DNA of 55,561 bases from a virus, in IMG/VR virus record IMGVR_UViG_3300029705_000157. The stretch is one strand, 5' to 3'. Shown piece after piece: positions 38,273-55,561 of this stretch; position 1 is the first letter of the stretch; each line of letters starts with the position of its first letter. The notes beneath the pieces were generated by a model that was not told the DNA's origin, made no database searches, and worked only from the letters and a program-made list of their open reading frames with translations. A program made the translations under genes and the position numbers.

Positions 38273-39268
38273 CTACCTTCCTGTACTTCCGAATCCGTTA
38301 TCGCCACGTTCGGTTTCGTCTAATCTGTCAACTTGTACCAATTGCACATCTAATGCTTTCTGGAATACTATTTGTGCAACTCGTTCTTTCGGAACAATAA
38401 TTTTTACATTGTCTGTATCGTTGTGAACAGGCAATCCAACACTTCCACGATAATCACTGTCTATGACCGATACACATGTTGCTGGACGCAAACCATGCTT
38501 TGTTGATAATCCACTTCGTGCATATACTGCACCAAAATAGTTTTTAGGTATCTCAAATGCAATATTTGATTGAATCAATACTGTTTCGTGCGGTCTTATT
38601 TCAACTGGTTTATCAATATCAGCAAATAAATCATATCCTGCAGCACCTATACTCTGTTTATGTGGGATAATTGCCGTTTCAGTCACTTTTTTAATTTTTA
38701 TTAGTTCTGGTTCTTCGCTAACAAATTGTCCTTTTTCATTTCTTTTATTTGGATTCAATTTATTGTGAAGCATTCTATGCGCACCACGTTCCATTACTTC
38801 AAGATTTTCTTTTCTATTATCTTTCCTGTCGAAGTTCTTATGATGAACATCGTAACCAGATTTTAGATACAATTTTTCGCCTATCTGAATGGAATTTTCT
38901 GGCGTCAACAAGTATTGTTCTGCTATCAAACGGTGTTCAAACACCCATCCACCATTGTCACAAAAAGGATGCTCATGGTTTCGTATCATAACGTATCCAT
39001 AAGAATTTTTTCTGATATCACCTTTCCAGGAAGCATTCTTTTTCCCCTTAATTCCGTATTGATGGTTTCCTTTTCCTTTCATATATTCTTTCTTTGCATC
39101 ATTTTGACATTTCTTGGAACAGTAATGTGTTTTATTCCGTTTCAATGCACTTGGTTTTAAATGAAATCTTTTTCCACACATATTGCACTCTGTATTATTC
39201 CATTTGTCTTCATCATCTAAAACTACTTTAATTTGCACTTCAAGTTCCCTCCTGTTTAAAACGGACAT
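38273..39268 (-). CDS. dut: HNH endonuclease domain fused to dUTPase
   Basis: N-terminus: Zn finger CNMCGK...CSKKC and HNH VHHKNFDRKDNRKENLEV..AHRMLH. C-terminus: dUTPase motifs AAGYDL, ARSGLS, VIDSDYRG and GFGSTG. It is a single uninterrupted ORF. Confidence 0.8.
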   Translation of the reverse strand: MSVLNRRELEVQIKVVLDDEDKWNNTECNMCGKRFHLKPSALKRNKTHYCSKKCQNDAKKEYMKGKGNHQYGIKGKKNASWKGDIRKNSYGYVMIRNHEHPFCDNGGWVFEHRLIAEQYLLTPENSIQIGEKLYLKSGYDVHHKNFDRKDNRKENLEVMERGAHRMLHNKLNPNKRNEKGQFVSEEPELIKIKKVTETAIIPHKQSIGAAGYDLFADIDKPVEIRPHETVLIQSNIAFEIPKNYFGAVYARSGLSTKHGLRPATCVSVIDSDYRGSVGLPVHNDTDNVKIIVPKERVAQIVFQKALDVQLVQVDRLDETERGDNGFGSTGR

Positions 39269-39957
39269 AAGTCCTTTCTTAATTCAATTTCTAATCCTTT
39301 TCTCGCATAGTCCACATAAGCGTTTTTAGCGACTTTTTTTATCTCATTGACACATTCTTCGGGTTCGCACGTTTCTCCGCCCATATGGAGCAATAACACG
39401 GTCTTAAGATTATTTGTTGCATTTACTTCTATAAAATTCTTGCAAGTTTCCAGTGAGCAATGCCCTTTTATCTTGTGTTCATAATTCGGCAAATCTCTAT
39501 TTACCAGTTCCGTCTGATAATTGCATTCAATCAAAATGTGGTCCACTTTCATATTTGCGAATCTGTACTTGCAATACTCAAAATCCGTCATGTACAAAAT
39601 TTTTTGATCATCCGCTTCAATCAAGAATCCATAGTTCGGTGTCTCATTATGCGGAAGTTCGAAAGTTGTTATCATGAATTTTCCCAAATAACATCTTCGG
39701 TAGTCACATAAATTCTTATGAAGATATGGGGTAAATACCATTATTCCCATTCGTTTAAAAGCCTCGACACATTTTGAATGGTCCTGATGGGAATGGCTTA
39801 CTGCCACACCCACAATCTTTGTTATGTTATAATCCAAACCCTTTTTGATATCCTTAATCGGTATACCGCAATCCAAAATCAATGTTTCGTTTTCTGTTGA
39901 TAACAGATAGCAGTTTCCCGATGAACCAGTGGATAATGTTTTAAGTGTTAGCATCAT
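39256..39957 (-). CDS. Metallo-beta-lactamase fold hydrolase/nuclease
   Basis: HxHxDH motif in VAVSHSHQDHSK. Confidence 0.7.
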   Translation of the reverse strand: MMLTLKTLSTGSSGNCYLLSTENETLILDCGIPIKDIKKGLDYNITKIVGVAVSHSHQDHSKCVEAFKRMGIMVFTPYLHKNLCDYRRCYLGKFMITTFELPHNETPNYGFLIEADDQKILYMTDFEYCKYRFANMKVDHILIECNYQTELVNRDLPNYEHKIKGHCSLETCKNFIEVNATNNLKTVLLLHMGGETCEPEECVNEIKKVAKNAYVDYARKGLEIELRKDLCPF

Positions 39958-40823
39958 TACTCCTTCATAAATTCCGGAACATCTCCAGTTTCAACCACTT
40001 CCGCATCAATCACTGTTTCTTCAAAATCCACTGAATTTGCGTTCTGTTCAATATCGTACGCCACATCTTCAGCGACCATATCCACATTTTCCAATTCCTC
40101 AGATTTCTCATAAGTTGAAACAGCAAACACATCTCCGTACTGCTGCACAATCTGTTTACAAGCTCTTGATGTGACTGTTTTCTTTGCCATCATGTCCGTA
40201 AACTCTTTGTGTGTGCCGGAATTTTCCTTGTAACCAAACCCCTTACGCCATGCGGTCTTAATCTGAGCAAAGTTCATAACTTCCATATAAGTGCTACCAT
40301 CGGATAACTTCACAACGCAGTAAGCACCGATGATTTTGTCAAGGTTAATGTTTTGGAAACTCTGTTTGTGGCAATCAAGAATCTTTCTACCATTTTCGAT
40401 ATGGTATTCAAATATATCTCCATCATAGATAACCTCTGCATCAATACTGACTGCTCCATATCTGTGAGCCATTGCCTTGTGTCCGTGATAAGATACCTGA
40501 CAATTCAGCTTTCCGCCGTAAGCAATCGGATAGCATTGTTTTTTCTGCATGTTAAGACCCATTGTAACCATATCCATAAGAGTGTTTGCGATGCTCGCCT
40601 GTGAGCAAGTTTCCAGTACACTCTTTCCGTTTTTATCATTTGTTTCTTTCAAGATAAGATACGCCCCCATTAAAGCATTCGTAGGGTTGTAATCTTTTGG
40701 AAATGTCAATCCGTATTTTTCCTTTTCTTTCAACTGTGCTGACAATCCATCAATAAACGCATTGTTTACTACTAATGAAGCGTTTTGATTGCCCTGTGCC
40801 TGTAACTCTGCTTTTGTAGCCAT
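39957..40823 (-). CDS. recT: RecT-family single-strand annealing protein
   Basis: CYPIAYGGKLNCQVSYHGHKAMAHRYG...IIGAYCVVKLSDGS...MAKKTVTSRACKQ pattern with an acidic C-terminus. Confidence 0.75.
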   Translation of the reverse strand: MATKAELQAQGNQNASLVVNNAFIDGLSAQLKEKEKYGLTFPKDYNPTNALMGAYLILKETNDKNGKSVLETCSQASIANTLMDMVTMGLNMQKKQCYPIAYGGKLNCQVSYHGHKAMAHRYGAVSIDAEVIYDGDIFEYHIENGRKILDCHKQSFQNINLDKIIGAYCVVKLSDGSTYMEVMNFAQIKTAWRKGFGYKENSGTHKEFTDMMAKKTVTSRACKQIVQQYGDVFAVSTYEKSEELENVDMVAEDVAYDIEQNANSVDFEETVIDAEVVETGDVPEFMKE

Positions 40824-40826
40824 AAT

Positions 40827-41852
40827 TCATACCTCCAATAATTCTTTTACCAATAAATCCATTGAATGACATAGTTTAATGCAATTTCCATGCAACGCAT
40901 GATTCTTCCACGCATTGTACTTTTCAAAAAACTTTTGTTCAGACATCTTTCCGTCCTTAACAGCCTTAGCCCATACCCTTATCTTTTTTCGGATTCTACG
41001 CTTGTTTTCTCCCGACAACTTTCTTATGTATTTACCGTCTTTTGTTATGTAATGATGAAAACCAAGGAACCTTAATCCATTTTTGAACGGAACTATCTGT
41101 GTCTTTCCGTTCAATTCCAGTTTCAAATCTGATAACAAATTTTCTATTTCCTTAAGGCATTTCTTTAAATAATCCTTATCATGGAAAATCAAGTAGAAAT
41201 CATCCATGTATCGTCCGTACAGTTCGATTCCTAATTTCTCGGTTATCATGTGATCCATTCCATCAAGCATTAACAGTGCATACACCTGAGCAACTTGATT
41301 TCCTAATGGAAGTCCTAAACCGTCTGTGCTATCAATAAAAAGATGATTTAACCATTTTGTGTATTCGTCTGGAAAATAACTGTCCACAATCTTTTTCAAA
41401 ATCTCATGGTCTATTTGGTAGAAAAACTTCTTAATATCACATTTGAGAATCCATCCGTCAAGACCATGTGATTTGTAAAACTGCAACATCTGCTCTTTCA
41501 AACAATCCATCCCGAAATGAGTGCCTTTTCCAATCTGCCCGGCATAGTTTGTCCTTATAAATATATCGGACAATCTCGGATGCAGTATTTCATCACATAA
41601 ACAATGCTGCACCACTTTGTCCTTAAAAGAACAAGATTTAATCAATCTTTCTTTTGGTTCGTAAATCATAAATTCATTGTATGGATTGATTTTGTATGTA
41701 CGATTTTCAAGCTGTTCCTTTAACATGTGGAGTCCTTCAAGACTCATTGTTTGAAACCTCGCACAACTTCCATTATTCGACTTACCGGATTTTGCTTTCT
41801 TATAAGCCTTGTATAGATTTTCAAAACTGCATACAATACTTTTGTCATCCAT
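40827..41852 (-). CDS. DGR-type reverse transcriptase
   Basis: RT motifs ILKCDIKKFFYQID, GLPLGNQVAQVYALLML (the DGR-typical LGxxxSQ-like motif 4) and YGRYMDDFYLI (YMDD). It lies directly downstream of Avd and the TR. Confidence 0.9.
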   Translation of the reverse strand: MDDKSIVCSFENLYKAYKKAKSGKSNNGSCARFQTMSLEGLHMLKEQLENRTYKINPYNEFMIYEPKERLIKSCSFKDKVVQHCLCDEILHPRLSDIFIRTNYAGQIGKGTHFGMDCLKEQMLQFYKSHGLDGWILKCDIKKFFYQIDHEILKKIVDSYFPDEYTKWLNHLFIDSTDGLGLPLGNQVAQVYALLMLDGMDHMITEKLGIELYGRYMDDFYLIFHDKDYLKKCLKEIENLLSDLKLELNGKTQIVPFKNGLRFLGFHHYITKDGKYIRKLSGENKRRIRKKIRVWAKAVKDGKMSEQKFFEKYNAWKNHALHGNCIKLCHSMDLLVKELLEV

Positions 41853-41950
41853 ATTAAAAATTCCTTTGTATTTACCCTTTTAGGGAGGGTCGCACACCTT
41901 TTTGTATCTTGTACTGATTTCGGCTTATTGCCTACTCTGACTGCCTGTTT

Positions 41951-42026
41951 GATACAGAATGGGCGAACCCCGTTGTTGTTATTGTAGTTGTTGTTGTTGA
42001 TGTTGCCGGACGGCGAAACAACGGTT
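41951..42026 (-). repeat. DGR template repeat (TR)
   Basis: Coding strand: GTT GTT TCG CCG TCC GGC AAC ATC AAC AAC AAC AAC TAC AAT AAC AAC AAC GGG GTT CGC CCA TTC TGT ATC. It is non-coding, lies between Avd and the RT, and matches three gene 3' ends. Confidence 0.9.
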
Positions 42027-42049
42027 TTTACGGTGTGCAACCTATAGCT

Positions 42050-42421
42050 TTATCTTTGTCTATCTTTTGTTCTCCAGGCAATCGACATACGCTTAATATC
42101 AGTTACCATCTTTGACCAGTATTCCATTCTTTGTTTGTTTATTATGTTTAGTTTTACGGATAATTCTATGTAAAACAGTAACTGATCGCAGTATGTTATC
42201 GCCCTAGTCTGCAATTCTAATCGATGTCTTTTGTAATCCCTTATATCCGTTCTGTTTGCTTCTTGAAGATATTCATAAATCTCAAGTGATTTATTCTGCA
42301 TCTTATCCACTAAAGAAAATCTATATTTCTTCGGATATGTATTGCAATTTGAAGTAACTCGAAGCGTATGTTCGGCAAGTTCCATTGATTTTAGAATTAC
42401 TTTTAAATCTGTATCCGACAT
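42050..42421 (-). CDS. avd: Accessory variability determinant (Avd, four-helix-bundle family)
   Basis: 123-aa basic helical protein between the target gene and the TR. The position and size are canonical for Avd. Confidence 0.8.
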   Translation of the reverse strand: MSDTDLKVILKSMELAEHTLRVTSNCNTYPKKYRFSLVDKMQNKSLEIYEYLQEANRTDIRDYKRHRLELQTRAITYCDQLLFYIELSVKLNIINKQRMEYWSKMVTDIKRMSIAWRTKDRQR

Positions 42422-43027
42422 TTAATCATCCTCGGATTCAAAGAGATCAGATGAGAAGATGCAAAATGGGCGAACCCCGAGGCTGCCATTGCAGCCGTCG
42501 TCGTAGAAGCGGCCGGACGGCGAAACAACGCGTACCCATCTACTATCATCGTTGCAGGCTGTACTGTCCGCTGTGATAAGCCACCACCAATAACCGGCGT
42601 TCGGAATGTATTCTCTGTACTTTCTATATTCATCCACATTCAATAAGGAAACCTTATCTTCACAACGACCATATTCTTTCTGACCGTCCATTGATAATAA
42701 GTCTCTTTCAAATGATACAATGTTTTCTTCTCCAACCTCTTTTTCCAGTTTTTCAAGAAATTCCGAGTTCAGATATTTTCTTAAACTGCTATTCGACCAG
42801 TTATTGCAAGAAGAATCAAATTTCATATCTTCCGGCAATTTTTCGGAAAGACACAAGTAACCATTCTCTGTAATATCAAGAATTTTACACTCCAAATCAG
42901 CAAGAGTAAAAGTATCCCCAACTTCCAGTTTTTTTTGAATTTCCTTGATTGGTTTACTCGTGATTTTTGAAACAATCTTTTCGAGTTCTGCGAGTCTTGA
43001 TTCTATTGTTTTTGCTTTTACTGCCAT
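42422..43027 (-). CDS. DGR target protein 1 (coiled-coil N-terminus, C-type-lectin-fold-like C-terminus carrying VR1)
   Basis: C-terminus GYWWWLITADS...VVSPSGRFYDDGCNGSLGVRPFCIF. No signal peptide. The W..SSLRKYLN motif is shared with its paralogues. Confidence 0.85.
   Translation of the reverse strand: MAVKAKTIESRLAELEKIVSKITSKPIKEIQKKLEVGDTFTLADLECKILDITENGYLCLSEKLPEDMKFDSSCNNWSNSSLRKYLNSEFLEKLEKEVGEENIVSFERDLLSMDGQKEYGRCEDKVSLLNVDEYRKYREYIPNAGYWWWLITADSTACNDDSRWVRVVSPSGRFYDDGCNGSLGVRPFCIFSSDLFESEDD
42461..42530 (-). repeat. Variable repeat VR1
   Basis: Same length as the TR. There are 14 mismatches, all at TR adenines: CGC TTC TAC GAC GAC GGC TGC AAT GGC AGC CTC. Confidence 0.9.
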
Positions 43028-43028
43028 A

Positions 43029-43661
43029 TCATTTATCCCCTTTCGATACAAAGATATTAGATTTTAAGATACAAACCGGGCGAACCCCGCCGTCGTCATT
43101 GCAGCCGATGCCGTCGTAGATGCAGCCGGACGGCGAAACAACGGACATACGATACTTATATCCACGTTCCGCACTAGACCATGGCGTACATGTCCACCAC
43201 CAATCGTCAAGCTCTTTATTGACGATCAATTCATTGTACTCTCGTGCTTCATCAAAAGTGATCGGACGAACCTTGCATATGCACGATTCAAATTCATGCT
43301 GCATATCCACAGATGTCAAATCAACTTCGTGTTCCACAATGTTTTCTGCCCCAATAGATTCACTTATAATAGGTAGAATCTCTGATTCGATTTTTTTCTT
43401 TAAATTTGATTTCCCGTAATCTCTAGCATCAAAATCAAAAACAACGTCTTCCAACATAAATCCTTTGGAAATCACTTTTGTTTTTCCAAGCGATTCATAT
43501 TGCTTCAAAACAATAAAATCATGATCGCCAATTTTAAATGTATCTCCCGGTAATAGTTCCGACAATGCAACATCTGTTGAACTACACTTGCACTTACAAT
43601 TTTTCTCTTTTTCTTCTAATACCTTTACAAGTTCTTTTGCCATTTCTAATTCTTTGCTCAT
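43029..43661 (-). CDS. DGR target protein 2 (paralogue carrying VR2)
   Basis: C-terminus DDWWWTCTPWSS...VVSPSGCIYDGIGCNDDGGVRPVCI. No signal peptide. Confidence 0.8.
   Translation of the reverse strand: MSKELEMAKELVKVLEEKEKNCKCKCSSTDVALSELLPGDTFKIGDHDFIVLKQYESLGKTKVISKGFMLEDVVFDFDARDYGKSNLKKKIESEILPIISESIGAENIVEHEVDLTSVDMQHEFESCICKVRPITFDEAREYNELIVNKELDDWWWTCTPWSSAERGYKYRMSVVSPSGCIYDGIGCNDDGGVRPVCILKSNIFVSKGDK
43071..43146 (-). repeat. Variable repeat VR2 (one codon longer than the TR)
   Basis: TGC ATC TAC GAC GGC ATC GGC TGC AAT GAC GAC GGC. With a one-codon gap in the TR, every mismatch falls on a TR adenine. Confidence 0.8.
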
Positions 43662-43680
43662 TCCATTTCCCTCTCTTTGC

Positions 43681-43968
43681 TTAAAATACAATTAATGTGA
43701 CTGACAAAAATCCAATAAACCATACAATCAAGGTATATATAATATCTGTTATCAGTTCTTCTATTAATTTTTCTGTTTTTCTCCTGTTCGTAGGTAAAAA
43801 CCATAAAACAATTAAAGAAAACGCCCATCCTTGCCAAAACGTAAATGTTCTCAAATCAAACAATTGGCATATTATGTTGTTCCAAAGATAAATTGTTACA
43901 AAGCCGGTAAGCACAAAATCAATAAGATATAAAATAATTCCTATTAAAGCCTTTGCTGTTTTTTTCAT
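43681..43968 (-). CDS. Small multi-pass membrane protein
   Basis: 95 aa with three hydrophobic helices. Confidence 0.4.
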   Translation of the reverse strand: MKKTAKALIGIILYLIDFVLTGFVTIYLWNNIICQLFDLRTFTFWQGWAFSLIVLWFLPTNRRKTEKLIEELITDIIYTLIVWFIGFLSVTLIVF

Positions 43969-45909
43969 TTACGCCACCTCCACTTTTAATTCTTTATCTT
44001 CTGAAACACACATCATAATCAGCTGGCAATCCATATCAATCTTCGCTTTTGATTTGGAGTCAAGACATTCCGCATTATCAAGAAATACCGGGTAAAATCT
44101 TCCGTAAAACTTCTGCAAGCCTTTAACAATATCCAGCTTTGCGAGAACTTCCAAACCAGTATTTGTACATTCGCCAAATCGCTTTCCGTTAATTGTCGGA
44201 ATGCAAATTTCCTTGTATTCGCCGTTTTTCTGATATTCAAAAAATTGCCATTTTACAACATCAAAATTACTATTAATCTCTTCCGTAAGAAGATTGTTCT
44301 TCATCTTTCCGATTTCTTTAATCTGATCAAGAATATCTTCACAATCGGCAAGTGCCTGTTCATACTCGATCTGCTTTTTACGGAGTTCTGCGATCTGTTC
44401 ATCAATCGCATCGTTATTAGACGCACGGAAAATCTCGCTTTTTACTTCATCCAGTTTGGATCGTATTTCTTTTTCTTCGATTTTCAGCTGACTTCTTGTA
44501 TCATCTGCAATGTTTCCAGCAATCATGTGTGATTCTTTTTCTTTAATCTCAGAAACAATGCGTTTATATTCGTCTGTATCGGAAATGTTGATTTCATCTG
44601 GAAGTTTTTTAATTTCTGTATCAACTGCATTCCAAAGAATGTGCAATTCATTTTCGTGTTCTTTGAGTCGTTCACGTTCTTCTTTTAAACCCTTTAACGC
44701 TTCCGTGTATTCCACAACAGCATTCTTGAAAATAGTTCCGCAGTCTGTAATCTTTTGCATTTCCGTAGATTTTCTTGCAGCGAAATTACTTCTTAATTTC
44801 TCCACATCTTCTACAGGCAATGGTTGCCCACACAAAGAACAAATTGCAGAATTTTCATCAAAAAATGTTTCGTTCCACTTGGACCATTCAACTCTTGTGT
44901 CGGAAAGTTTCTTATTAAAAGATTCAATCTGTCGTTCGGTATCTGATATGGTCATTTTGTTCGCCGTTATCTTTCCTTCATTAGCTTTAATCTGATAATC
45001 CAAATCACGTTTTTCGGAATTTAATTTGTTTCTCTTTTCCTGTAATTCAGCATTTGCACTTCTCTGAATATCGCCAAGTTTGAATTTTAATTCCATGATT
45101 CCATCAGACATTTTTTTCATTTCTTCGTACCGTTTGGAAATGTCCTGCTGCATACTCTCATTTTTTTCTAATAATTCTTCAAAGTGTCGCTTTTTTAATT
45201 CCAAATCAGAAACATCTACACGGTATTTAGCTGATTCCAGCCCAGCAATCTTAGCCATAATAATCTCTCCGTCTTTGCCGTAATCTTCACGGATTTTACG
45301 CATTGTAGACTTCTGCATTGCTTCAATTTCACTCATTTTGTAATTAGCAAGGAGTTCCGCAACCTTTTGTGTGCGTGACTGCATTTTTGCAATTTCCAAA
45401 TCCGTATAAGAATTTCTTGCCATGGAAAAGAGAATAGACCTTGCGATTTCATCTCTTGTCTTTTTCTCAAACGTGTATCTCAGAAACATATCCGGATGAC
45501 TGAGTATCAGCATTTTTTCAAAGTCAATACCAATATCTTCAAGATAAGATTTAAAATCACGCTCTGTCTTTTCAACAGCATTCACTTCATAGCTGTTCGT
45601 GATAGTCACACGTGTTTTATCCTTGGAAACCTTGCGTTTCTGCATTTTAGAAACCGTTACTGGTTTATTTCCAACCATAAATTCCAATGTTACCGTAGGT
45701 GTACATTCTCTTCCGTCATTTGGACGGATATTAGGATTGCTTTTCAAATCGTAGCTTTTATCAAAAAACAACCAATAAAAAGCATCTGCCATGGTTGTTT
45801 TCCCTGCACCGTTACATCCCGATATAACAGTTTTGTCTTTAAATATGTATTTTTCTTGAGTTGCGCCCTTGAAGTCTTGCAGACGCATTTCTAATAGCTT
45901 TGTTTTCAT
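43969..45909 (-). CDS. SMC/SbcC-like AAA ATPase with a long coiled coil
   Basis: Walker A GCNGAGKTT at the N-terminus, about 350 aa of heptad-rich sequence with a CxxC (CSLCGQ) hinge, and Walker B-like VFLDNAECLD at the C-terminus. Confidence 0.7.
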   Translation of the reverse strand: MKTKLLEMRLQDFKGATQEKYIFKDKTVISGCNGAGKTTMADAFYWLFFDKSYDLKSNPNIRPNDGRECTPTVTLEFMVGNKPVTVSKMQKRKVSKDKTRVTITNSYEVNAVEKTERDFKSYLEDIGIDFEKMLILSHPDMFLRYTFEKKTRDEIARSILFSMARNSYTDLEIAKMQSRTQKVAELLANYKMSEIEAMQKSTMRKIREDYGKDGEIIMAKIAGLESAKYRVDVSDLELKKRHFEELLEKNESMQQDISKRYEEMKKMSDGIMELKFKLGDIQRSANAELQEKRNKLNSEKRDLDYQIKANEGKITANKMTISDTERQIESFNKKLSDTRVEWSKWNETFFDENSAICSLCGQPLPVEDVEKLRSNFAARKSTEMQKITDCGTIFKNAVVEYTEALKGLKEERERLKEHENELHILWNAVDTEIKKLPDEINISDTDEYKRIVSEIKEKESHMIAGNIADDTRSQLKIEEKEIRSKLDEVKSEIFRASNNDAIDEQIAELRKKQIEYEQALADCEDILDQIKEIGKMKNNLLTEEINSNFDVVKWQFFEYQKNGEYKEICIPTINGKRFGECTNTGLEVLAKLDIVKGLQKFYGRFYPVFLDNAECLDSKSKAKIDMDCQLIMMCVSEDKELKVEVA

Positions 45910-46096
45910 TTTCTTTCCTCCATTCTTCTATCCAGCAATCAATCTCCCCTAATACAATCCAAATCAATATTCCAGCAAGAATACCGACCAGCCAAAGATT
46001 ATCTTTAACCTCCCACCACGAATCAACTGTGGTTATCGAATAACCGCTTATGGCTCCTATAATCATGTTTTTAATGGTTTCTTTAATAAGTTTCAT
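45839..46096 (-). CDS. Small membrane protein
   Basis: 85-aa ORF with two hydrophobic segments. Its 3' end overlaps the ATPase start. Confidence 0.3.
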   Translation of the reverse strand: MKLIKETIKNMIIGAISGYSITTVDSWWEVKDNLWLVGILAGILIWIVLGEIDCWIEEWRKENENKAIRNASARLQGRNSRKIHI

Positions 46097-46407
46097 AATG
46101 CCCTTCTCCTAAACTTATCTAATGTTTTTTTTACCCCTGTCCTTTTGTGAATAACCTTCAAATAAAAATCCGTTACGTCATAACACATCCATTCTTTTGG
46201 ATTCATATAATGTGCAGACACACATTCTTTTTGACTACGTGTTAACCTCTTCGGCTGTTTCATTTTCCACCACTCCTTTTCGGAAACCTTTGAAAAATTC
46301 TCTTAAGGCAAACAATCCCAAGCACGCAATTTGTAAAACAAGCATACCAACCGCACCAACGATAATTCCTGTTGCAAAATTCATATTCGTCACCTCTCAT
46401 TCTTCAA

Positions 46408-46905
46408 TCAAGATTCAAAGATGGAAGATGGAAAGATACAAACCGGGCGAACACCGTTGCGGCTGCGGCAATTGAAGATGTCGAGTATGCGGCCGGACGG
46501 AGAAACAACGGCGTGCAAATATTTATATCCATTACATGGCGTGCTCCATGGTGTAATCAGCCACCACCAGTCATTCATGTTAGGTAAATATTTTCTGTAT
46601 CTCTGATACTCATGCTCGGTAATCAGCGACGCAAAGTCCTTACAAGTTCCGTATTCCGTCTGTCCATCAACCGACATCAGATCACGTTCAAACTCAACCA
46701 GTTTAACGCCTGCATCTTCAATCTTTTTACAAAAATCCCCATTCAGATATTCTCTAAGGCTTGATTTTCTCCAGTCGTTTGAATCATCATCAAAAACCTT
46801 ATCCCCGATTGATTCTTCGGTAATCGCCAAATAGCCCTGTTCTGTTTTATCCAGGATTCTCCATTTAAGTCCTGCGATTTCTTTAATTGTTCCAATGTTA
46901 TTCAT
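46408..46905 (-). CDS. DGR target-like protein 3 (remote paralogue carrying VR3)
   Basis: WRKSSLREYLN...NDWWWLITPWST...VVSPSGRILDIFNCRSRNGVRPVCIF. Confidence 0.75.
   Translation of the reverse strand: MNNIGTIKEIAGLKWRILDKTEQGYLAITEESIGDKVFDDDSNDWRKSSLREYLNGDFCKKIEDAGVKLVEFERDLMSVDGQTEYGTCKDFASLITEHEYQRYRKYLPNMNDWWWLITPWSTPCNGYKYLHAVVSPSGRILDIFNCRSRNGVRPVCIFPSSIFES
46435..46513 (-). repeat. Variable-repeat-like VR3 (diverged)
   Basis: GTT GTT TCT CCG TCC GGC CGC ATA CTC GAC ATC TTC AAT TGC CGC AGC CGC AAC GGT GTT CGC CCG. One extra codon and at least four non-adenine mismatches to the TR. Confidence 0.65.
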
Positions 46906-46921
46906 GTTTGTTCTCCTTTCT

Positions 46922-47686
46922 TTATGCTGTTAAAAACTTATTCACAAAATACACTTGTCCGCGACCTGTAATTTTCGGCGTGCGAGTGATTCTTACCGAA
47001 CCATCGGGATTTTGAACACTGGATTCCTTGATTTCAAATAATCCCTGCTCCATGTACTTCTGTTTCGGCATATTGTATGAACTGCCCTGTTTCATCAGAT
47101 ATCCGTTATCACGCATCCACTGGAACAATCGTTTCTGACCGATTTTCACACCGTTCTGACAAATCAGCTTGGCCAAATCTCCGATAAGGATTGAAGTGTG
47201 ACTTGTGGACACCGCATCAGCAAAAATAGTCTTTGGCTTGTCAGCTTCAATCTGCATCTGCTGTCTGTGGATAATTGCATCACGTTCAGCGATTTTGTTT
47301 TGAGCGACCAGCAACGCCTTAGCCATCAGTTCATCATCTGTCATGGTTTCTTGTCCGGCTATATAACCACCGTGTTTTCTGATTGACGGAAGGACTTCTG
47401 ATGTTACCCAGTGTTTAAATCGTTTGGCTGATTCTAATTTGCTTCCAAGAATAAGTCCGTACATTCCTGACTCATTGATTACGATAGTTTCCTTATTCTG
47501 ATTCCCATCAAAAATCATAAGTTTTGTTCTATCTTCTTCGTCAACATGTCTGTTAATATCTCGACTACCGTTTTGGTACCCCAGCTTATCAGCAACATCC
47601 TTACCAACAAAATACACTTCATTATTCAGTTGTACCGTTCGGATTTTCCCGAACTCAGCATTTTCAAAAATCTTGATTTCGTTCAT
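46922..47686 (-). CDS. Antirepressor (Bro-N domain + KilAC/ANT C-terminal domain)
   Basis: IKIFENAEFGKIRTV...YFVGKDVADKLGY...NESGMYGLILGSKLESAKRFKHWVTSEVLPSIRKHG. The C-terminus ends TPKITGRGQVYFVNKF. Confidence 0.85.
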   Translation of the reverse strand: MNEIKIFENAEFGKIRTVQLNNEVYFVGKDVADKLGYQNGSRDINRHVDEEDRTKLMIFDGNQNKETIVINESGMYGLILGSKLESAKRFKHWVTSEVLPSIRKHGGYIAGQETMTDDELMAKALLVAQNKIAERDAIIHRQQMQIEADKPKTIFADAVSTSHTSILIGDLAKLICQNGVKIGQKRLFQWMRDNGYLMKQGSSYNMPKQKYMEQGLFEIKESSVQNPDGSVRITRTPKITGRGQVYFVNKFLTA

Positions 47687-47800
47687 TCGCTCACCCCCTA
47701 CACCATCGGGATAAGACTTGCGATAAGAACACCAGTCAATACCCCGATGCAAGGAATGAGAAATTCGATTGCCATGATTAGAATGTCTTTCTTTCTCATG

Positions 47801-48910: not shown

Positions 48911-49702
48911 TTGAAAAACGAAAAATCAAAAAATATTCGCTTGAATTTGGTGTCAAATCACGAAAATTACATGGAAAGTTTCCGTGATAACATCGGAATT
49001 TTACGAACTGATTTTGGTTGGTCTGTGAGAGTTTTAGCAGAAAAAGCTAATATATCAGAAGACACGCTTCAAACATTTTTAAAGGGAAAATCTAAAGACT
49101 GCAATTTGTCAACGGCGGTAAAATTAGCAAGGGCGTTTGGAATTACAGTAGATGAATTGATTGGTGCAGAAACTATGGACCCACAGACTCAAGAATCCGT
49201 AGCTATGTCTTCTAATCTAAAAGACCATCATAGATATGTTATTCGTGCTTACGTTAAGCATCAATACAAGATACATGGTGATGTTCCTAAGACAAGCAAA
49301 CAGATTTCAGTAATGATGCCAGAATGCCATCACGGATATTTGAAAACTACTAATGTTACCGAAGCATTAAACATAGACCATCTGTACGATAGCACACGAT
49401 CAAAAGTATGCCTTGGTTTACGTGTTCCATGCGCACACTACGAACCATATTATATGCAAAACGAAATTCTTTTACTTGCCGCAGACCGTGACGGACTTAA
49501 CAATGAACGATGTGTCATTACTCATGCTGGAAATTTCTACATATGCATCAAGCGTATTATAATTGAAAATGGCAAAAAATCGGTAAAATATTTGTCGCTC
49601 ATGGACGGAAGAAACGTGCTATTTGACCATGATGAAATAGATGATAAGATTGGATATGTTGTTGGATTCTTGTACCCAGATGGCGCATGGGGTGTTCGAT
49701 AA
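48911..49702 (+). CDS. HTH (XRE) protein with a LexA/CI-like C-terminal domain that lacks an obvious Ser-Lys dyad
   Basis: LAEKANISEDTLQTFLKGKSK HTH. The C-terminal beta-rich domain has no GxSM-type motif. TTG start after GGAGGGA. Confidence 0.6.
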   Translation: MKNEKSKNIRLNLVSNHENYMESFRDNIGILRTDFGWSVRVLAEKANISEDTLQTFLKGKSKDCNLSTAVKLARAFGITVDELIGAETMDPQTQESVAMSSNLKDHHRYVIRAYVKHQYKIHGDVPKTSKQISVMMPECHHGYLKTTNVTEALNIDHLYDSTRSKVCLGLRVPCAHYEPYYMQNEILLLAADRDGLNNERCVITHAGNFYICIKRIIIENGKKSVKYLSLMDGRNVLFDHDEIDDKIGYVVGFLYPDGAWGVR

Positions 49703-50285: not shown

Positions 50286-50545
50286 TCACTCACCCCCAGT
50301 AAGATACGACCTGCTTCGGCATATTCATCATTGATGTCGATATCAGTGGTAGGTTCGTCAATTTCCGTAAACTTATTTGGACTATCCGTATCAATACAAG
50401 CGTAAGTAGCAACACCATCCGTAAGAACTTTTCCTTTGTCTGCAATAAGTCTATAGACTTCCGTGTAGTCACCATCTGGCTTTTCGGTAGATACTGTTAC
50501 CTTGCCCGCTTCTCGTTCATATCTGTATAATTTTTTAATCTCCAT
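50282..50545 (-). CDS. Hypothetical protein
   Basis: 87-aa ORF, translationally coupled on both sides. Confidence 0.35.
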   Translation of the reverse strand: MEIKKLYRYEREAGKVTVSTEKPDGDYTEVYRLIADKGKVLTDGVATYACIDTDSPNKFTEIDEPTTDIDINDEYAEAGRILLGVSE

Positions 50546-51843
50546 TAGTTCACCTCATCTAACACTTCAAGTTTTGTGACACAGAAACCATTAAAGGATA
50601 AAGGTATGCAATAAATACCAGCTTTTGGTATCGTTATATTCGGGAATCCATCATAGGATAATTCCGTATTATCTATAGATACGCCAATAATGGCTCCGTT
50701 AAATTTCATCCATGTACTAGGTTGACTTGATGATGTTGAATCGTCTACATCTTCTTCGAAAACTGTTATATTTCCGTTATTAATAGTTGTTATTTTAATG
50801 GATTTATGCGTAAATATCGGATAATAGTCACACACCTTATAGATAGTCACATTCATAACATCTGTAGCAATTTCAACATGTTCTAACCCATCAGTTGTAA
50901 CACCATCCCATTCAAGAACAGTCTTGTATTCATCAGATGGTTCTACATAGTTATAATTAATAGTAGCATTGGTAGCACCCCAAGGAGCGTTTGATACTTC
51001 GCCTTCTGACCATGGTACGTTGATAGTAAGGAGGTTGGTGCAGTCTTTAAAGGCATCTGATGATATTGATCGAGGCTTTACAGTAAATGTCATTTGTGTT
51101 AAATCAGTACATCCACGAAAAGCTTGTGTACTGATTTGTGTAATTCCTTCGGGCAAAGATGTTAATGCTAGACTTGTACAGTTTTGAAAAGCATACGAAC
51201 TGATGTCGTTTAGCGTTGCTGGTAATGATGTTAATGCTAGACTTGTACAGTCACGAAAAGTGCTATTGTTGATAGTTGTAATTCCTTCGGGCAAAGATGT
51301 TAATGCTAGACTTGTACATTTTTGAAAAGCATACGAACCGATGCCGTTTAGCGTTGCTGGTAATGATGTTAATGCTAGACTTGTACAGTTTGAAAAAGCG
51401 TTACTGTTGATACGTGTAATTCCTTCGGGCAAAGATGTTAATGCTAGACTTGTACAGTTTTGAAAAGCATACGAACTGATGTCGTTTAGCGTTGCTGGTA
51501 ATGATGTTAATGCTAGACTTGTACAGTTTGAAAAAGCGTTACTGTTGATACTTGTAATTCCTTCGGGCAAAGATACTGATATCAGTTTCTCACATCGTTC
51601 GAAAGCACTTGTGCCTATTTTTGTAGTTCCTTCTGGTATAACAACATTAACAATCGTTCTCTCTACAATGTTTTTCAGTATTTCAGCCCATTCGTCATCG
51701 CTAGAACCACCGCTTTGAATCGCCATAATAGCACCACTCATTTGAGATGGCTTATAGGTTTCTTCTGTACCATTTTTTTCACGGATAGCATCTGCAATGT
51801 CTCTCATATAACTTTCATCTATAAATACATTAGCCATTACCAC
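50545..51843 (-). CDS. BspA-type leucine-rich-repeat protein (receptor-binding candidate)
   Basis: Repeated 23-aa units such as [23 protein letters not shown] and [23 protein letters not shown]. It lies in the tail-fibre block. Confidence 0.75.
51140..51553 (-). repeat. Three near-identical tandem 138-bp coding repeats (each encoding two LRR units)
   Basis: Units start at 51140, 51278 and 51416, with a partial fourth at 51554. The first ~111 nt of copies 1 and 3 are identical. Confidence 0.9.
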
Positions 51844-52826
51844 GCCACCTCGTTTCCATTTACTACTTGATTGAAAATTTCAGTGATAATTTCGGTTTTA
51901 TCGGATTCCGTGAAGTAATCTACACCTTTTTGTGGGGTGTAGCCGGGCTGACCTGGTTCGCCTGGTATGCCTTGTGGGCCTTCTGGTCCTTGTGGTCCAG
52001 GTTCTCCAATGTCTCCTTTATCGCCTTTTTCTCCTCGCGGTCCTTGTTCTCCAGTTTCTCCTTGAACACCTTGAATTCCCTGTTCGCCTTGTGGTCCTAC
52101 TTCTCCTCTTTCTCCTTGAGTGCCTTGTTCACCCTTGTCGCCCTTTTGACCTCTTGAACCATTTCGAACTTCAAAAGTGGATTTTTCGCCATCGGTTTTT
52201 GTGACAGTGACTACATTAACACCGCCATCTTCCGTTGATGTAGTGGTCTGAATCACGGAATCGATACCGACACCATCTTTTCCATCAGTGCCACTTCCGC
52301 TTCCACCACCCGATTGATTCACTGCTTCAAATTCAATCGGTTTTCCGTTTTCGCCTACGGATTTTACGGCTATTACTTGCCCTACTTCTGCAAATTCTGG
52401 AATAGATATTTTATTTCTTATTGCAACTTCAAGTTGCTCCAAGAACGATAATTGTGAAGGACTTGAATATCCATTAGGCTCAGGTTTGGACTGAACGTAC
52501 ATGGTTATCTTACGGACTGTCCTTGCTGAATCCTCCCCTATAAGATACACAAACGCATATGCTTCATAAAATGTCTTTTTTGTTTCTTCTGCTTCTGTAA
52601 CCAGTGTCGGAATGCTGACAATAATATCTCCGTCAACAACCTCGCCAAGCATACGTTCCGCTTCTCCGTTCTTTTCCGTTAAAGAAAAATGGACTTCGAC
52701 CATATCCGTATATACGTCAAGTCCACTTATTTTCAGTTTTGTTCCAATATCCCATTGCACCACCCCATCTTGCAGAGTGGTGCTATATTCATCTGTTTTA
52801 AATATTACTGGAATTAATTTTTCCAT
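51837..52826 (-). CDS. Collagen-like tail fibre protein
   Basis: 24 uninterrupted Gly-X-Y triplets ([28 protein letters not shown]...GEPGQPG). Confidence 0.75.
51942..52160 (-). repeat. Gly-X-Y collagen-like coding repeat
   Basis: Residues 223-295 of the 329-aa ORF. Confidence 0.85.
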
Positions 52827-53743: not shown

Positions 53744-55561
53744 ATCGCCCCCTTTGTCATGTTGTACGCTCGCCTAAGCCCAAGATTACCGCGAAATGCG
53801 CCATTAAACGTCAATTCATTGGAAGTTACCTCCACTTGAAGATTTGGTATCTTACTGCTTTCCATACGTATGATGTCGGTTGCATTAAGTCTTGGTTCTC
53901 CACGGAAATTCACGTCATAAGTAACATTGTTTGCGTAATAGTTTCCTATCCATTCCGCAATAATAGCAGCATGTTCTTCTGTTGCTATAAGTGGATTGGA
54001 AAGAAGTTTTGATTCCCCTACTGGGTTTATCTGTCGGGAATAATAAACTTCATCCTCTATTTCCTCAGGTTCTCCCTCGGCGTTTTCAAAAAACGAATAT
54101 ATCTTCACACGAACATCTTTTACTCGTTTTTCTTTGTATCCTACTGGATTTTGATACATATTATTGCGCTTTAAGAAATAGTCCGATAAACCACCAAATG
54201 ATACTTTGTTTACAATCACGCGACTATTCGGAGATGCTTTTGTAAAACGTATGTACATTCTATCAAAATCATCGAATTGCTCACTGATTATTGTTGTCTT
54301 TTCCACATTGTCTACAACAATTTTTTTAACAATTTCATTATCATTAAATGTTTCCACAACAAACTGTTTAGGCATGTTTCCGCCAAATTCCAGCACAAGT
54401 CCGTGATATGTGTTTGCATATTCCAAATCAATCCCTATTGATGGATTAAATAAAAATTCTCCATTTTGGTCTGATATTTCATTGCTTACAAAACCAGCAT
54501 TAAGATATTCCTCGTTTTCTGGCATAAATCTCATGCTGCCATCGGCTTTCATAAAATCAGGTGTAAGTTCCGCATAAACAATATCTGAACCTATAAAAAT
54601 ATTTTCAAGGTTTCCCCATTCCGCAATAGGTGTGGATGATAATTTTGTTTCTTCACGATCAATTAAAACCGCAAAGTTCGGAACGACCATTACAACACCA
54701 TATTCATCTTGTTTTATCTTGCATCTGCATGCGTTTGCTAATATCTGCAAGCACTGCTTATGTGATGCCTCTGGCATTGGATTTATCAAATTAAATTCTT
54801 TCAAGTATTCATCCACATAATACTCGTCTGATTCAAGTCCGGCATCTTTAAAGATACTTATTGCTTCGTCATATGCGGTACGTTCATATATTCTGTTTCC
54901 AAGACTGTACACATTATCCATGTGATACATTCTGTCGTAAGATGTCAACGTAACAACATTATTTTGCCTTTTCCAATCTTTCAAATAAGTTGTCGCTATC
55001 TGATGCCATTCTATTGAACCATCTGCAAGTGTTATTCCAAATGAAAATGTAATCTTTTGCATGGTTTCCAGATAATCAATAAAAGAATTATTGTCATCCA
55101 CATCGAATTTGTCCTCCTTGTCGTAAAAAGAAAAGGAACATCTGTAACTTGATAATTCATCCGATATCGAAGAAACTATTTCATTTATTGAAAATGTTTT
55201 TGTGTCTTCGTTGGTGTATTGTAGTCCTACGCCCATCAGAATGCGCTTTATTCGCAGTCTTTTGTTTCCACCGACCATTTCTAATGGCACAATCTGAATG
55301 TAGCTTATATCGCCGAATACGTCCTCTGTGACAAATCTTTCTGAATCGTTTGTGTACTGCACTGTACCCTGGTTTGTTACAAGGTTAAATCTTGTCGGAT
55401 ATGCGCTTCCAAACTCAAGCGTAATTCCTTTTATGTAATACGATTTTTGAAGAACAATCATTATGGAACCCATTATTTCTTCCGTAACAATTCCATTGCT
55501 TTTTAATTGCTCAAGATTGCTTTCTGGAACAAAATACATTTTCCCATCAGCACGCATATAG
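53740..55561 (-). CDS. Large tail tip/baseplate protein (its true start wraps to 232 at the other window end)
   Basis: 605-aa ORF that is the second gene after the tape measure. The frame continues upstream across the circular junction. Confidence 0.6.
   Translation of the reverse strand, partial: YMRADGKMYFVPESNLEQLKSNGIVTEEIMGSIMIVLQKSYYIKGITLEFGSAYPTRFNLVTNQGTVQYTNDSERFVTEDVFGDISYIQIVPLEMVGGNKRLRIKRILMGVGLQYTNEDTKTFSINEIVSSISDELSSYRCSFSFYDKEDKFDVDDNNSFIDYLETMQKITFSFGITLADGSIEWHQIATTYLKDWKRQNNVVTLTSYDRMYHMDNVYSLGNRIYERTAYDEAISIFKDAGLESDEYYVDEYLKEFNLINPMPEASHKQCLQILANACRCKIKQDEYGVVMVVPNFAVLIDREETKLSSTPIAEWGNLENIFIGSDIVYAELTPDFMKADGSMRFMPENEEYLNAGFVSNEISDQNGEFLFNPSIGIDLEYANTYHGLVLEFGGNMPKQFVVETFNDNEIVKKIVVDNVEKTTIISEQFDDFDRMYIRFTKASPNSRVIVNKVSFGGLSDYFLKRNNMYQNPVGYKEKRVKDVRVKIYSFFENAEGEPEEIEDEVYYSRQINPVGESKLLSNPLIATEEHAAIIAEWIGNYYANNVTYDVNFRGEPRLNATDIIRMESSKIPNLQVEVTSNELTFNGAFRGNLGLRRAYNMTKGAI
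55530..55561. repeat. Terminal overlap identical to 1..32
   Basis: Exact 32-nt match. Confidence 0.9.

Follow-up and report, generated by a model that had tools for sequence, protein, structure and literature searches.

The closest described systems are the prototype diversity-generating retroelement (DGR) of BPP-1 (mtd-avd-TR-brt) and the DUF6273 DGRs of gut Clostridia phages, namely those of the nd4/nd12 'tentaclin' phages with their small tgt2 proteins, of the Faecalibacterium prophages Lelie, CP11, Roos and Pioen, and of Toutatisvirus. In BPP-1 the genes follow the order target, avd, template repeat (TR) and reverse transcriptase (RT), mutagenesis is adenine-specific from an AAC-rich TR with Avd as partner of the RT, and the VR is located at the C-terminus of a protein with a C-type-lectin fold. 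The gut systems likewise possess a C-lec-like target, DUF6273 having been assigned to the C-lec fold in published work; its C-terminal VR forms a surface hairpin, and one TR serves two targets. All of these features, including the gut virome setting, recur in the window, by which we denote the whole stretch of 55,561 nucleotides analysed here (IMG/VR record IMGVR_UViG_3300029705_000157).

The window represents a phage genome of about 55.5 kb and 37% GC, which is probably circular and whose host is probably a member of the gut Clostridia. Judged from its sequence, it very likely carries the complete and functional DGR of a temperate tailed phage. This is a textbook case of a known system and not a new kind, as DUF6273 targets, indels at AAC runs and the RNA elements flanking the TR have all been published already. 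The phage backbone differs from those of the gut DUF6273 systems; beyond a 266-nt stretch at 74% identity, a collection of 50,697 phage records contained no match to it at or above about 85% identity.

The cassette is encoded on the minus strand, to which all feature coordinates given here refer, in the order target gene, Avd-like gene, non-coding TR and RT gene. The TR (41958..42023) harbors a variable core of 33 nt (42004..41972; AAC ATC AAC AAC AAC AAC TAC AAT AAC AAC AAC) with 20 adenines. Comparison with VR1 (42530..42465, core 42511..42479) reveals 14 mismatches, and 14/14 are located at TR adenines. Over the repeat, which is 65 nt long when counted from 42022 in the TR and from 42529 in VR1, the hypergeometric probability of all 14 falling on A by chance is 1.9e-9, and 4.7e-5 for the core alone. 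Substitution of adenine cannot create a stop codon in codons ending with C or T, and since all variable codons of the TR core end in one of these two bases, no stop codon can arise from adenine substitution. The earlier note had described this gene order, the confinement of the TR/VR1 differences to adenines and a core of 20 adenines without a route to stop codons, and on each of these points our analysis agrees with it.

A second repeat, VR2 (43143..43078, core 43124..43089), has a core of 36 nt in the window, exceeding that of the TR by one codon; once a gap of one AAC-derived codon is allowed, every mismatch to the TR is again at an A. The window's TR further contains a private G (GGGG, where the family has GGTG) which is common to VR1 and VR2, and transfer therefore took place later than that mutation. 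The ends of the tract copied from the TR to the VRs were set to approximately 42023/42022 and 41961/41960, based on where TR and VR agree and on which minority alleles they have in common, as read from 137 VRs. With about 64 nt this tract is short compared to the 134-nt TR of BPP-1.

VR1 lies at the 3′ end of target gene 1 (42422..43027), which codes for a C-type-lectin-like DUF6273 protein of 201 residues (1.3e-9 and 38.6 bits against Pfam DUF6273, gathering threshold 23.5). Its start is most likely the ATG at 43027, as in public gene calls. The span 40827-43051 proposed in the earlier note located the DGR, but its end at 43051 is a mechanical TTG start of an open reading frame, and the second target and a third paralogue were omitted. 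For the AlphaFold model of target 1 (pLDDT 81), fold matches are found to phage proteins with DUF6273 (E down to 9e-8) and, weakly, to C-type lectin domains (CRDs); the placement of the VR at the C-terminus of C-type-lectin-like (DUF6273) targets is supported by the domain hits and this model. Target gene 2 (43029..43661, 210 aa, DUF6273-like) lies directly upstream of target gene 1. It scores 21.9 bits against Pfam DUF6273, just under the threshold of 23.5, and its homology to DUF6273 proteins is found through PHROG 9958 (2.3e-29). In contrast to BPP-1, the window thus has two tandem targets as well as a decayed third, and these targets are single-domain proteins of about 200 residues which lack the β-prism and β-sandwich attachment domains of Mtd. 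A small single-domain target flanked by short helices is known from the gut DUF6273 DGRs (nd4_tgt2, 234 aa); unlike these systems, the window has no tentaclin (Ig-domain) target, and its two tandem targets both belong to the small type.

The third DUF6273 paralogue (46408..46905, 165 aa; Pfam DUF6273 3.4e-9, 37.2 bits) carries a VR-like end at 46510..46445. When read in frame, this end shows non-adenine mismatches to the TR, and its flanks correspond to the family consensus TCT/GGT, whereas the window's TR has TCG/GGG. It is unchanged in both same-strain contigs that cover the site. Judging by its sequence, this paralogue has probably become a fossil, and at the least the window's TR probably does not serve it now.

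The RNA on both sides of the TR resembles that of BPP-1, where a duplex between an upstream segment and the spacer is followed by a stem-loop and adenosines, and where a second duplex between the TR 3′ end and the spacer is found 2 nt away. The spacer (Sp) RNA between TR and RT gene (41853..41957) has a core, GAGTAGGCAATAAGCCGAAATCAG, which includes a GGC/GCC hairpin (41932..41922) and is strongly conserved among 30 diverse family members. A 12-bp long-range helix brackets the TR and is independently predicted by RNAalifold. Its upstream strand AGGTTGCACACC (42032..42043) starts 7 nt past the avd stop codon and is therefore intergenic, while the corresponding strand of BPP-1 resides inside avd; its downstream strand GGTGTGCGACCC (41887..41898) is in the spacer, and the counterpart in BPP-1 is the 'cPRT Stop' duplex of avd:Sp. 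Covariation is found for 9/12 pairs of this helix, with 98% of cells paired, and the observed values were reached in 0/500 shuffles. It is adjoined by a short stem-loop, CCC-TAAAA-GGG (41885..41875), with 2/3 pairs covarying and 100% of cells paired, and then by an invariant AAA (41873..41871), so that the element as a whole spans 41871..41885. In BPP-1 the elements have the same order, the stem-loop being followed by A-minor adenosines (Handa et al., bioRxiv 10.1101/2023.10.23.563531).

A candidate primer strand, GATACAAAA (41900..41908), can pair with the TR 3′ segment TTCTGTATC (41959..41951) by 8 bp and one C-A mismatch. The end of this candidate priming duplex coincides exactly with the 3′ boundary of transfer, and the duplex is separated from the long-range helix by 1 nt, compared with a gap of 2 nt in BPP-1 (Handa et al.). 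It is paired to 100% in the 30 sequences, with one compensatory change, and covariation support for it is thin because the duplex is almost invariant; RNAalifold favours a competing local hairpin at this site. Both the priming site, with a predicted priming adenosine at 41900, and the stop site are placed by analogy only. Taken by its sequence, the RNA flanking the TR matches the elements described for DGRs, i.e. the 'cPRT Stop' duplex, the stem-loop with adenosines and a predicted template:primer duplex.

At the 3′ boundary, transfer stops after GG(T/G)GTTCGCCC (+11/+12). Position +15 is a C in TRs and a T in 93-97% of VRs, and minority alleles of the TR past +12 are absent from VRs (0/14 and 0/12 at +19). 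The segment 41951..41959, directly 3′ of the transferred tract, is the candidate template strand of the template:primer duplex and holds a fixed TR-specific C at 41957, where VRs have T. This C/T difference may be regarded as a putative discriminator of the IMH*/IMH type. The GC-rich GGGGTTCGCCC, which had been suggested as the IMH at the 3′ edge, is indeed the last transferred segment, but it does not discriminate between TR and VR, and the fixed difference is situated just 3′ of it. A GC-rich inverted repeat as in BPP-1 was not found downstream of VR1 or VR2; only an AT-rich imperfect inverted repeat of 9 nt is seen after VR1, and none after VR2. Such GC-rich repeats after the VR are not universal among DGRs, and their absence does not exclude a DGR.

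The biochemical steps that we infer from these sequence features would be the following. The minus-strand early operon would be transcribed through avd, TR, spacer and RT gene, and in the folded RNA the 12-bp helix would connect the spacer with the stretch that directly precedes the TR, with stem-loop and adenosines adjacent, and GATACAAAA would form a duplex with the sequence that continues the TR at its 3′ end. If the process runs as in BPP-1, the complex of RT and Avd would prime cDNA from the predicted spacer adenosine and copy the TR from about 41960 towards 42023, placing random bases opposite each of the 20 adenines of the core and stopping ahead of the long-range helix. In target genes 1 and 2, the resulting cDNA of about 64 nt would take the place of the corresponding 3′-terminal tract, so that 11 codons on the surface of the C-type-lectin-like (DUF6273) domain would be re-randomised, for which the genetic code would allow about 6e11 peptide variants without stop codons. 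Occasional slippage on the AAC runs would lead to the gain or loss of whole codons and may have produced the 12-codon VR2 allele of the window. The third paralogue would probably stay outside the present rewriting.

The evidence for activity is comparative throughout and derives from assembled consensus contigs. Among near-identical contigs of the same phage two VR2 alleles of 36 and 33 nt are observed, the shorter one in contigs L081 and L082, and the differences between the alleles are all located in the VR2 core. Over 2.68 kb compared between L082 and the window, all 18 differences fall within 43090..43126, and over 7.5 kb compared with L081 only 2 substitutions are found outside this interval. 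Each of the two is compatible with the unchanged 33-nt TR through changes at adenines alone, and one metagenomic sample (3300018475) contains them both.

In-frame length variants of this kind are spread through the phage family, in which 15/139 VRs (~11%, one family, many lineages) differ in length from their own TR. Ten of the 14 in-frame variants correspond to the gain or loss of one AAC-derived codon without any non-A mismatch, and length variants are seen among near-isogenic phages whose TR is constant at 33 nt. Indels in multiples of 3 nt beside AAC repeats, as found here, were attributed to template slippage of the RT by Wu et al. 2018 (NAR 46:11), whose in-frame cases came mainly from Lineage 4-related DGRs outside phages. 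Beyond that work, the window's phage shows the effect at population scale, with two length alleles of one VR in an otherwise identical genome and an unchanged TR. As an alternative to RT slippage, the extra VR2 codon could stem from a formerly longer TR that was contracted by DNA replication slippage, or from an assembly artefact. Some relatives do have a TR core of 36 nt (L057, L058, L080), and the (AAC)n run is slippage-prone in the TR DNA itself; we nevertheless consider this origin unlikely, since the TR core measures 33 nt in every contig of the strain and in most family loci, the VRs of deviating length are scattered over lineages, and length variants occur with identical TRs in near-isogenic phages (L034/L035; L032 vs L014/31/36/43). 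A history of TR contraction would require repeated expansion and reversion, and the presence of the 36-nt allele in at least 7 independent contigs argues against an artefact.

Slippage by the RT is thus the preferred origin of the longer allele. A separate matter is how the cDNA might be integrated. The RT gene is followed by a gene for a RecT single-strand annealing protein (39957..40823; Pfam RecT 4.5e-35), the start codon of which lies 3 nt past the RT stop codon, the junction reading TGAATTATG. In 69/76 family loci a RecT-like gene is found 7-783 nt downstream of the RT gene, and these genes belong to four divergent annealase types; in more distant relatives no RecT-like gene was found at this position. 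RecT is a possible partner for cDNA integration, its placement being suggestive only. The cassette is surrounded by genes for an SbcC-like ATPase, an MBL-fold hydrolase and an SSB, and in contrast to BPP-1 it belongs to an early recombination module away from the tail genes; its location between the SbcC-like ATPase and the RecT-like gene also distinguishes it from the gut DUF6273 DGRs. The small targets are encoded in this early region, inspection of their N-termini revealed no obvious signal peptide, and conventional fibre candidates (collagen-like and BspA-LRR) are present elsewhere in the phage. It is conceivable, if quite improbable, that the DGR is wired into the phage's single-strand-annealing module and that the small targets are not tail-fibre tips but free or accessory binding proteins, possibly intracellular in the host. 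If so, phage RecT acting at replication forks would put the adenine-mutagenised cDNA into the VRs, and the locus would be the equivalent in nature of what has been engineered as 'DGRec'.

Across the family, comprising 74 loci (73 related gut-virome loci and the window) and 124 in-register VRs, 1274 mismatches are found at A and 8 elsewhere. Pairs of near-isogenic family members differ at 325 A sites and 3 non-A sites, in proximal as well as in distal VRs. TR-specific synonymous flank variants are common to VRs of the same genome (e.g. 10/10 and 7/9 at +9, 30/30 at -4), from which we conclude that TR-to-VR transfer is continuing. The population variation restricted to TR-adenine sites which the earlier note had anticipated for VR1 is seen, at the level of contigs, in VR2, while VR1 itself is invariant: the 8 same-strain DNA contigs show no variation in it, and its exact protein is recorded on 15 contigs. 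As VR1 is identical in all contigs of the strain, diversification is either infrequent or the VR1 allele is under selection. The invariance of VR1 and of the third paralogue's VR-like end in all same-strain contigs covering them, the non-adenine mismatches and TR-unlike flanks of the latter, and the out-of-register VR2 of the window would also fit a decayed remnant, in which the TR/VR pattern records past activity and the element is dead in the present phage. This is very unlikely, however, given that the reading frames of RT, Avd and the two main targets are intact and the catalytic motifs present, that rewriting of VR2, in register with the TR as it now stands, has occurred against a background of 0-2 other substitutions over 2.7-7.5 kb, that its two alleles occur side by side in one sample, and that the TR's private G has reached VR1 and VR2. 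The DGR of the window appears from these comparisons to be genuine and still active.

The RT (40827..41852, 341 aa; Pfam RVT_1 3.8e-18, PHROG 1423 8.6e-106) contains the YMDD motif (residue 215) and LGNQVAQ (residue 183), both noted before, as well as a catalytic D in LKCDIKKFF (136-144); in motif 4, LGNQVAQ has A where the [I/L]GxxxSQ-like pattern has S. Its best match among solved structures is the Bordetella phage DGR enzyme bRT (8ub7_A, E 4.5e-37, 131 bits), compared to about 44 bits (E 1.9e-10) for group II intron RTs and about 41 bits for retron-type RTs in the same PDB comparison. Counterparts of bRT K29, F66, R74, I76, G182, Q187, D138 and D215/216 are among the aligned residues, so that key active-site and template-contact residues are conserved. 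Assignment as a group II intron RT/maturase was rejected at 110 bits against a cut-off of 300 (NCBIfam TIGR04416) for a protein of only 341 residues, and assignment as a retron RT at 42.7 bits against 235 (NF038233). A grouping with either class, named beforehand as the outcome that would speak against a DGR, is contradicted by the structure-match scores and by these models staying far under their cut-offs; the sequence comparison supports placing the RT with the DGR enzymes, closest to bRT.

The neighbouring gene (42050..42421) encodes an Avd-like accessory protein of 123 residues, which matches PHROG 3206 'Avd protein of DGR' (7.5e-21). Its match to NCBIfam DivGenRetAVD (1.8e-11, 44 bits) stays under the cut-off of 80, those to Pfam bAvd and 23S_rRNA_IVP are both under the gathering score, and no sequence match to any solved structure was found. 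That the locus is no DGR at all, with an RT of group II intron, retron or defence type and with repeats that are paralogues diverging by point mutation or gene conversion, can practically be dismissed: DGR RTs and group II RTs are relatives (Handa et al.), and in NCBIfam, which has no DGR RT model, the RT matches the group II intron maturase model best (1.1e-31), but this match remains far below its cut-off, scores against the retron and Drt models are far lower still, bRT leads the solved structures by about 87 bits, an Avd gene adjoins TR and RT, the adenine-only mismatches hold for the window and the family alike, and the Rfam scan of 40000..47500 contains no intron RNA.

In that scan neither an intron RNA nor a retron RNA family was detected, and the only matches were RT-2 and one weak match at chance level. 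The Sp RNA reaches 35 bits against RT-2 (RF03077; gathering score 40, E 8.7e-7), and none of nine related loci gave an Rfam match at any gathering score. Weinberg et al. 2017 tied only RT-10 to DGRs; for the remaining RT motifs they proposed, in general terms, retrons or DGRs. On its sequence the Sp RNA is a relative of RT-2 and, by the Rfam threshold, a non-member. Like RT-2 it adjoins an RT gene, and the two have in common the core AGUAG-hairpin-GAAAUCAG and, further downstream, a stem-loop with UAAAUA after it.

The minus-strand cassette that the earlier note had read as a complete diversity-generating retroelement (DGR) is correctly interpreted as such: mismatches between its template repeat (TR) and the repeat ending target 1 (VR1) are confined to adenines, the reverse transcriptase (RT) is nearest to the DGR enzyme from Bordetella phage BPP-1 (bRT), an Avd-like gene is present and the targets are DUF6273 proteins. 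The element is a further member of a well-described class, namely gut Clostridia phage DGRs with DUF6273 targets, and its RNA architecture matches the BPP-1 model. It is a tidy example that holds no surprise for the specialist and leaves the current understanding of DGRs unchanged. The DGR catalogue gains a clean natural example from a well-populated family: about 80 relatives have been sequenced, and each phage has two or three small targets of lectin fold. Alleles are seen to switch, with a change in codon length among the cases, between near-identical genomes and within a single sample.

In minus-strand order, an SbcC-like ATPase (43969..45909) and a membrane protein of 95 aa (43681..43968) are followed by target 2 (43029..43661), target 1 (42422..43027), the Avd-like gene (42050..42421), a 197-nt intergenic region harboring the TR (42023..41958) and the spacer (Sp), the RT (40827..41852) and RecT (39957..40823), the ATG of which lies 3 nt past the RT stop codon. 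The ATG of target 1 is located at 43027, in agreement with the public gene call and one base past the target 2 stop codon; the upper coordinate of 43051 proposed earlier corresponds to a mechanical TTG start and is to be replaced.

TR and VR1 share a repeat of 65 nt, and all 14 of the 14 mismatches are found at TR adenines, as had been noticed from the sequence alone. By chance, all of them would hit A with a probability of 1.9e-9 across the full repeat, or of 4.7e-5 if only the 33-nt core is considered. The core contains 20 adenines and is composed of eight AAC codons together with ATC, TAC and AAT. Since each variable codon ends in C or T, no stop codons arise, and the peptides reachable by the genetic code number about 15^9 x 4 x 4, or about 6e11.

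The TR-type repeat occurs two further times (VR2 and VR3), both of which the earlier note had missed. VR2 ends the gene directly upstream of target 1, and both its flanks are identical to those of the TR; the GGGG private to the window TR, which reads GGTG in the family consensus, is also present in VR2. Its core comprises 12 codons compared to 11 in the TR, and all mismatches fall on adenines once one extra AAC-derived codon is placed in the first AAC run. A third DUF6273 paralogue (46408..46905) ends in VR3, which is identical in those same-strain contigs that contain it. The flanks of VR3 correspond to the family consensus, unlike those of the window TR, and in the in-frame reading non-adenine mismatches to the window TR are present. 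As such mismatches are seen, by eye, also with the TR type of the related locus L003, VR3 was rejected as a current target and is treated as a fossil that is no longer serviced. A GGGG-TTCG-CCC mini-hairpin was likewise dropped because the GGTG of the family consensus breaks it, and a search downstream of the VRs for a GC-rich inverted repeat like that of BPP-1 gave nothing convincing.

Comparison of related sequences provides good evidence that the element is probably active at present. The family consists of 80 IMG/VR loci with the same layout and RTs that are 70-80% identical. A TR could be located in 74 loci (73 from IMG/VR and the window), and their 124 in-register VRs display 1274 mismatches at A and 8 elsewhere. 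When near-isogenic phages are compared (35 comparisons, each with the TR unchanged and no more than 4 differences over 450 nt of gene body), 325 of the VR core differences fall on adenine sites and 3 on others. Furthermore, when a TR has private synonymous variants in its flanks, these recur in the VRs of the same genome, for which continuing TR-to-VR transfer is the sole explanation.

Within the strain itself, eleven contigs were retrieved by exact-sequence look-up, eight of them with a VR. TR and VR1 are identical in every contig containing those sites. Two contigs, L081 and L082, carry another VR2 allele of 33 nt that is in register with the TR and shows 11 mismatches to it, each at an adenine. 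Over 2.68 kb, 18 positions distinguish L082 from the window, every one inside 43090..43126, and L081 has only two further substitutions over 7.5 kb. The metagenome that yields L082 also yields L091, a contig with the 36-nt VR2 allele, and several same-strain contigs break at VR2 or TR, as expected for a polymorphic repeat. At the level of contigs VR1 of this strain is without variation, so that the refutation test set by the earlier note, taken literally, fails for VR1; it passes for VR2 and, in the family, for both VR positions.

Altogether 15 of 139 VRs in the family differ in length from their own TR, and 10 of the 14 in-frame length variants can be accounted for by a single AAC-derived codon being gained or lost, with zero non-adenine mismatches. 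Length variants occur among near-isogenic phages with a constant 33-nt TR, also within the window's own strain, which favors slippage during reverse transcription over evolution of the TR length. Both the VR/TR length differences and the slippage explanation have already been published (Wu et al. 2018, cited by a 2026 study), so that the present variation is a corroboration and not a discovery. In the related locus L005 (3603-3680) the proximal VR measures 38 nt compared to 33 nt for the TR, and these additional 5 nt cause a frameshift inside the VR, which could be DGR-made, of the kind described by Wu et al., or a sequencing error. Two target-1 relatives of 90% identity, P0122 (a Logan contig of 1101 nt) and P0121, have VRs with 13 codons (YFNYFIYCCNYCS) and 11 codons (LINRYDYFYDF), respectively, and VR1-type regions therefore vary in length in sister strains as well.

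For the RNA around the TR, the alignment covered 30 diverse family members, beginning upstream of the TR and ending at the start codon of the RT. An independent prediction by RNAalifold yields a long-range helix of 12 bp between 42043..42032, a strand that begins 7 nt past the avd stop codon, and spacer positions 41898..41887. Nine of the 12 pairs covary and 98% of cells are paired; no shuffle attains the observed values, and slid controls collapse. Directly after this helix, a covarying stem-loop of 3-4 bp and an invariant AAA are found. The same arrangement forms the 'cPRT Stop' of BPP-1, where cryo-EM depicts an avd:Sp duplex, a stem-loop and A-minor adenosines, and which its authors predicted in 207 other DGRs (Handa et al., 10.1101/2023.10.23.563531). 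The family lends strong covariation support, from a Clostridia-type phage, to the RNA elements observed by cryo-EM.

As a comparative data set the family also bounds the transferred tract at single-nucleotide resolution; the tract extends from about -20/-18 (CCGTTGTT) to +11/+12 (GGTGTTCGCCC, directly before an A). TR-private alleles beyond +11/+12 are never found in VRs, and position +15 is C in TRs and T in 93-97% of VRs, a fixed difference that marks it as an IMH*/IMH-type discriminator. TTCTGTATC (41959..41951), which adjoins the tract on its 3' side, and GATACAAAA (41908..41900) can form a candidate priming duplex of 8 bp, which is paired in 30 of 30 sequences with one compensatory change and stops one nucleotide short of the long-range helix. 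In BPP-1, Sp A56 primes on TR G117, and the cPRT Stop is two nucleotides away (10.1101/2023.10.23.563531). By analogy, priming would be predicted to start from adenosine 41900 with 41960 as the first templated base, a position coinciding with the observed transfer boundary. RNAalifold favors a competing local hairpin at the site of the predicted duplex.

The TR ends are themselves complementary, with 42022..42014 (ACCGUUGUU, 5' end) and 41971..41963 (AACAACGGU, 3' end) able to form a 9-bp helix closing the TR (columns 31-39 with 82-90 of alignment A3). It is 98% paired in the 30 sequences and shows scarcely any covariation, and may therefore only reflect coding constraints (GTTGTT encoding Val-Val, and the AAC repeats). 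The spacer core resembles Rfam RT-2 below threshold (35 bits vs 40), and nine related loci gave no Rfam match at gathering thresholds. The RT motifs were described by Weinberg et al. only as near RT genes. The family suggests that the conserved RNA resembling RT-2 is a DGR spacer. In the related locus L068 (6769-7014) a target-type ORF (…WWWTCTAW…) continues into an unmutated TR core, followed by a normal spacer and RT. This locus is devoid of Avd, the upstream helix strand and a separate VR; recombination between VR and TR appears to have removed avd, which should kill the DGR.

The best solved relative of the RT is 8ub7_A, a 328-aa 'Reverse transcriptase' (E 4.5e-37, 131 bits), which is taken to be bRT of phage BPP-1 since its length and residue numbering match the cryo-EM paper. 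A group II intron or retron origin is made very unlikely by scores of about 44 bits for group II RTs and about 41 bits for retron-type RTs, and the RT stays far below all cut-offs of the NCBIfam group II, retron and Drt models, NCBIfam having no DGR RT model. The alignment retains equivalents of bRT K29, F66, R74, I76, G182, Q187 and the catalytic aspartates, residues that, in the structure of bRT, touch template and incoming nucleotide (10.1101/2023.10.23.563531). The Avd-like protein matches the PHROG 'Avd protein of DGR' (7.5e-21) and also, below its cut-off, the NCBIfam model DivGenRetAVD; PDB sequence searches with Avd and target 1 returned nothing significant.

PHROG 9958 and Pfam DUF6273 are the families of all three target-type proteins. 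The AlphaFold model of target 1 (pLDDT 81, pTM 0.75) matches the fold of gut-phage DUF6273 proteins, and in the PDB its best match is a Thomasclavelia ramosa IgA peptidase domain, followed by weak C-type lectin CRDs; neither Mtd nor TvpA was returned by this fold search. DUF6273 has already been assigned to the C-type-lectin fold, and its role as a target of DGRs, also in small single-domain proteins, has been published for gut Clostridia phages.

The window (GC 37%) begins and ends with an exact 32-nt repeat (1..32 and 55530..55561), which makes it likely that the contig represents an entire genome of about 55.5 kb, either circular or terminally redundant. Nearly all ORFs of at least 90 aa are on the minus strand. 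The tape-measure, major head and portal proteins and the large terminase, together with integrase, repressor, antirepressor, primase-helicase, RecT and SSB, identify a tailed phage, and a temperate lifestyle is indicated by the tyrosine-integrase-like gene (25213..26448, minus strand; PHROG 1, 2.3e-46; mid-genome on the map as given), the repressor (48911..49702, plus strand) and the antirepressor (46922..47752). A nucleotide search of 39900..47000 against 50,697 GenBank phage records gave only a 266-nt match of 74%, so that no annotated close relative is among them; RT relatives of 50-75% identity occur in Clostridia MAGs (Acetatifactor, Acutalibacteraceae, Eubacterium), which would narrow the host only to Clostridia. 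Promoter and terminator scans remained at chance level.

The DGR lies in the early recombination module and not alongside the tail genes. The conventional receptor-binding candidates, a collagen-repeat tail-fibre protein (51837..52826, minus strand) and a BspA-type leucine-rich-repeat protein (50545..51843, minus strand; LRR_5 3.8e-55), are far from it, and neither is diversified. The only lead able to alter the understanding of DGRs is that a RecT-like annealing protein is consistently encoded next to the RT, as this bears on how cDNA enters the target. Among the 76 family loci with enough downstream sequence, 69 have such a protein, of four divergent types, 7-783 nt after the RT. Integration of DGR cDNA has been reported to be more efficient with the target co-directional to replication, which puts the cDNA-complementary strand on the lagging-strand template, and to be inhibited by ExoI and replaceable by RecT recombineering. 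Three more distant DGR cassettes with small targets of DUF6273 size (L092-L094) have no clear annealase adjacent, so that the synteny may be inherited through shared ancestry in one phage family. For a lead drawn from synteny only, functional coupling of DGR and RecT would seem rather improbable.

RecT is followed on the minus strand by an MBL-fold hydrolase (39256..39957; PHROG 392, 8e-58), an HNH-dUTPase fusion and SSB. The hydrolase could serve RecT as its nuclease partner, or act in anti-defence. A Pfam scan of the window protein gives Lactamase_B families only; in same-strain contigs the gene call, near-identical and of 232 aa, has a weak Anti-Pycsar_Apyc1 match among its precomputed Pfam hits. 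The fusion is a single ORF of 331 aa (38273..39268, minus strand) with an HNH endonuclease-like N-terminal half and a dUTPase C-terminal half, and is called at 321-331 aa in same-strain contigs.
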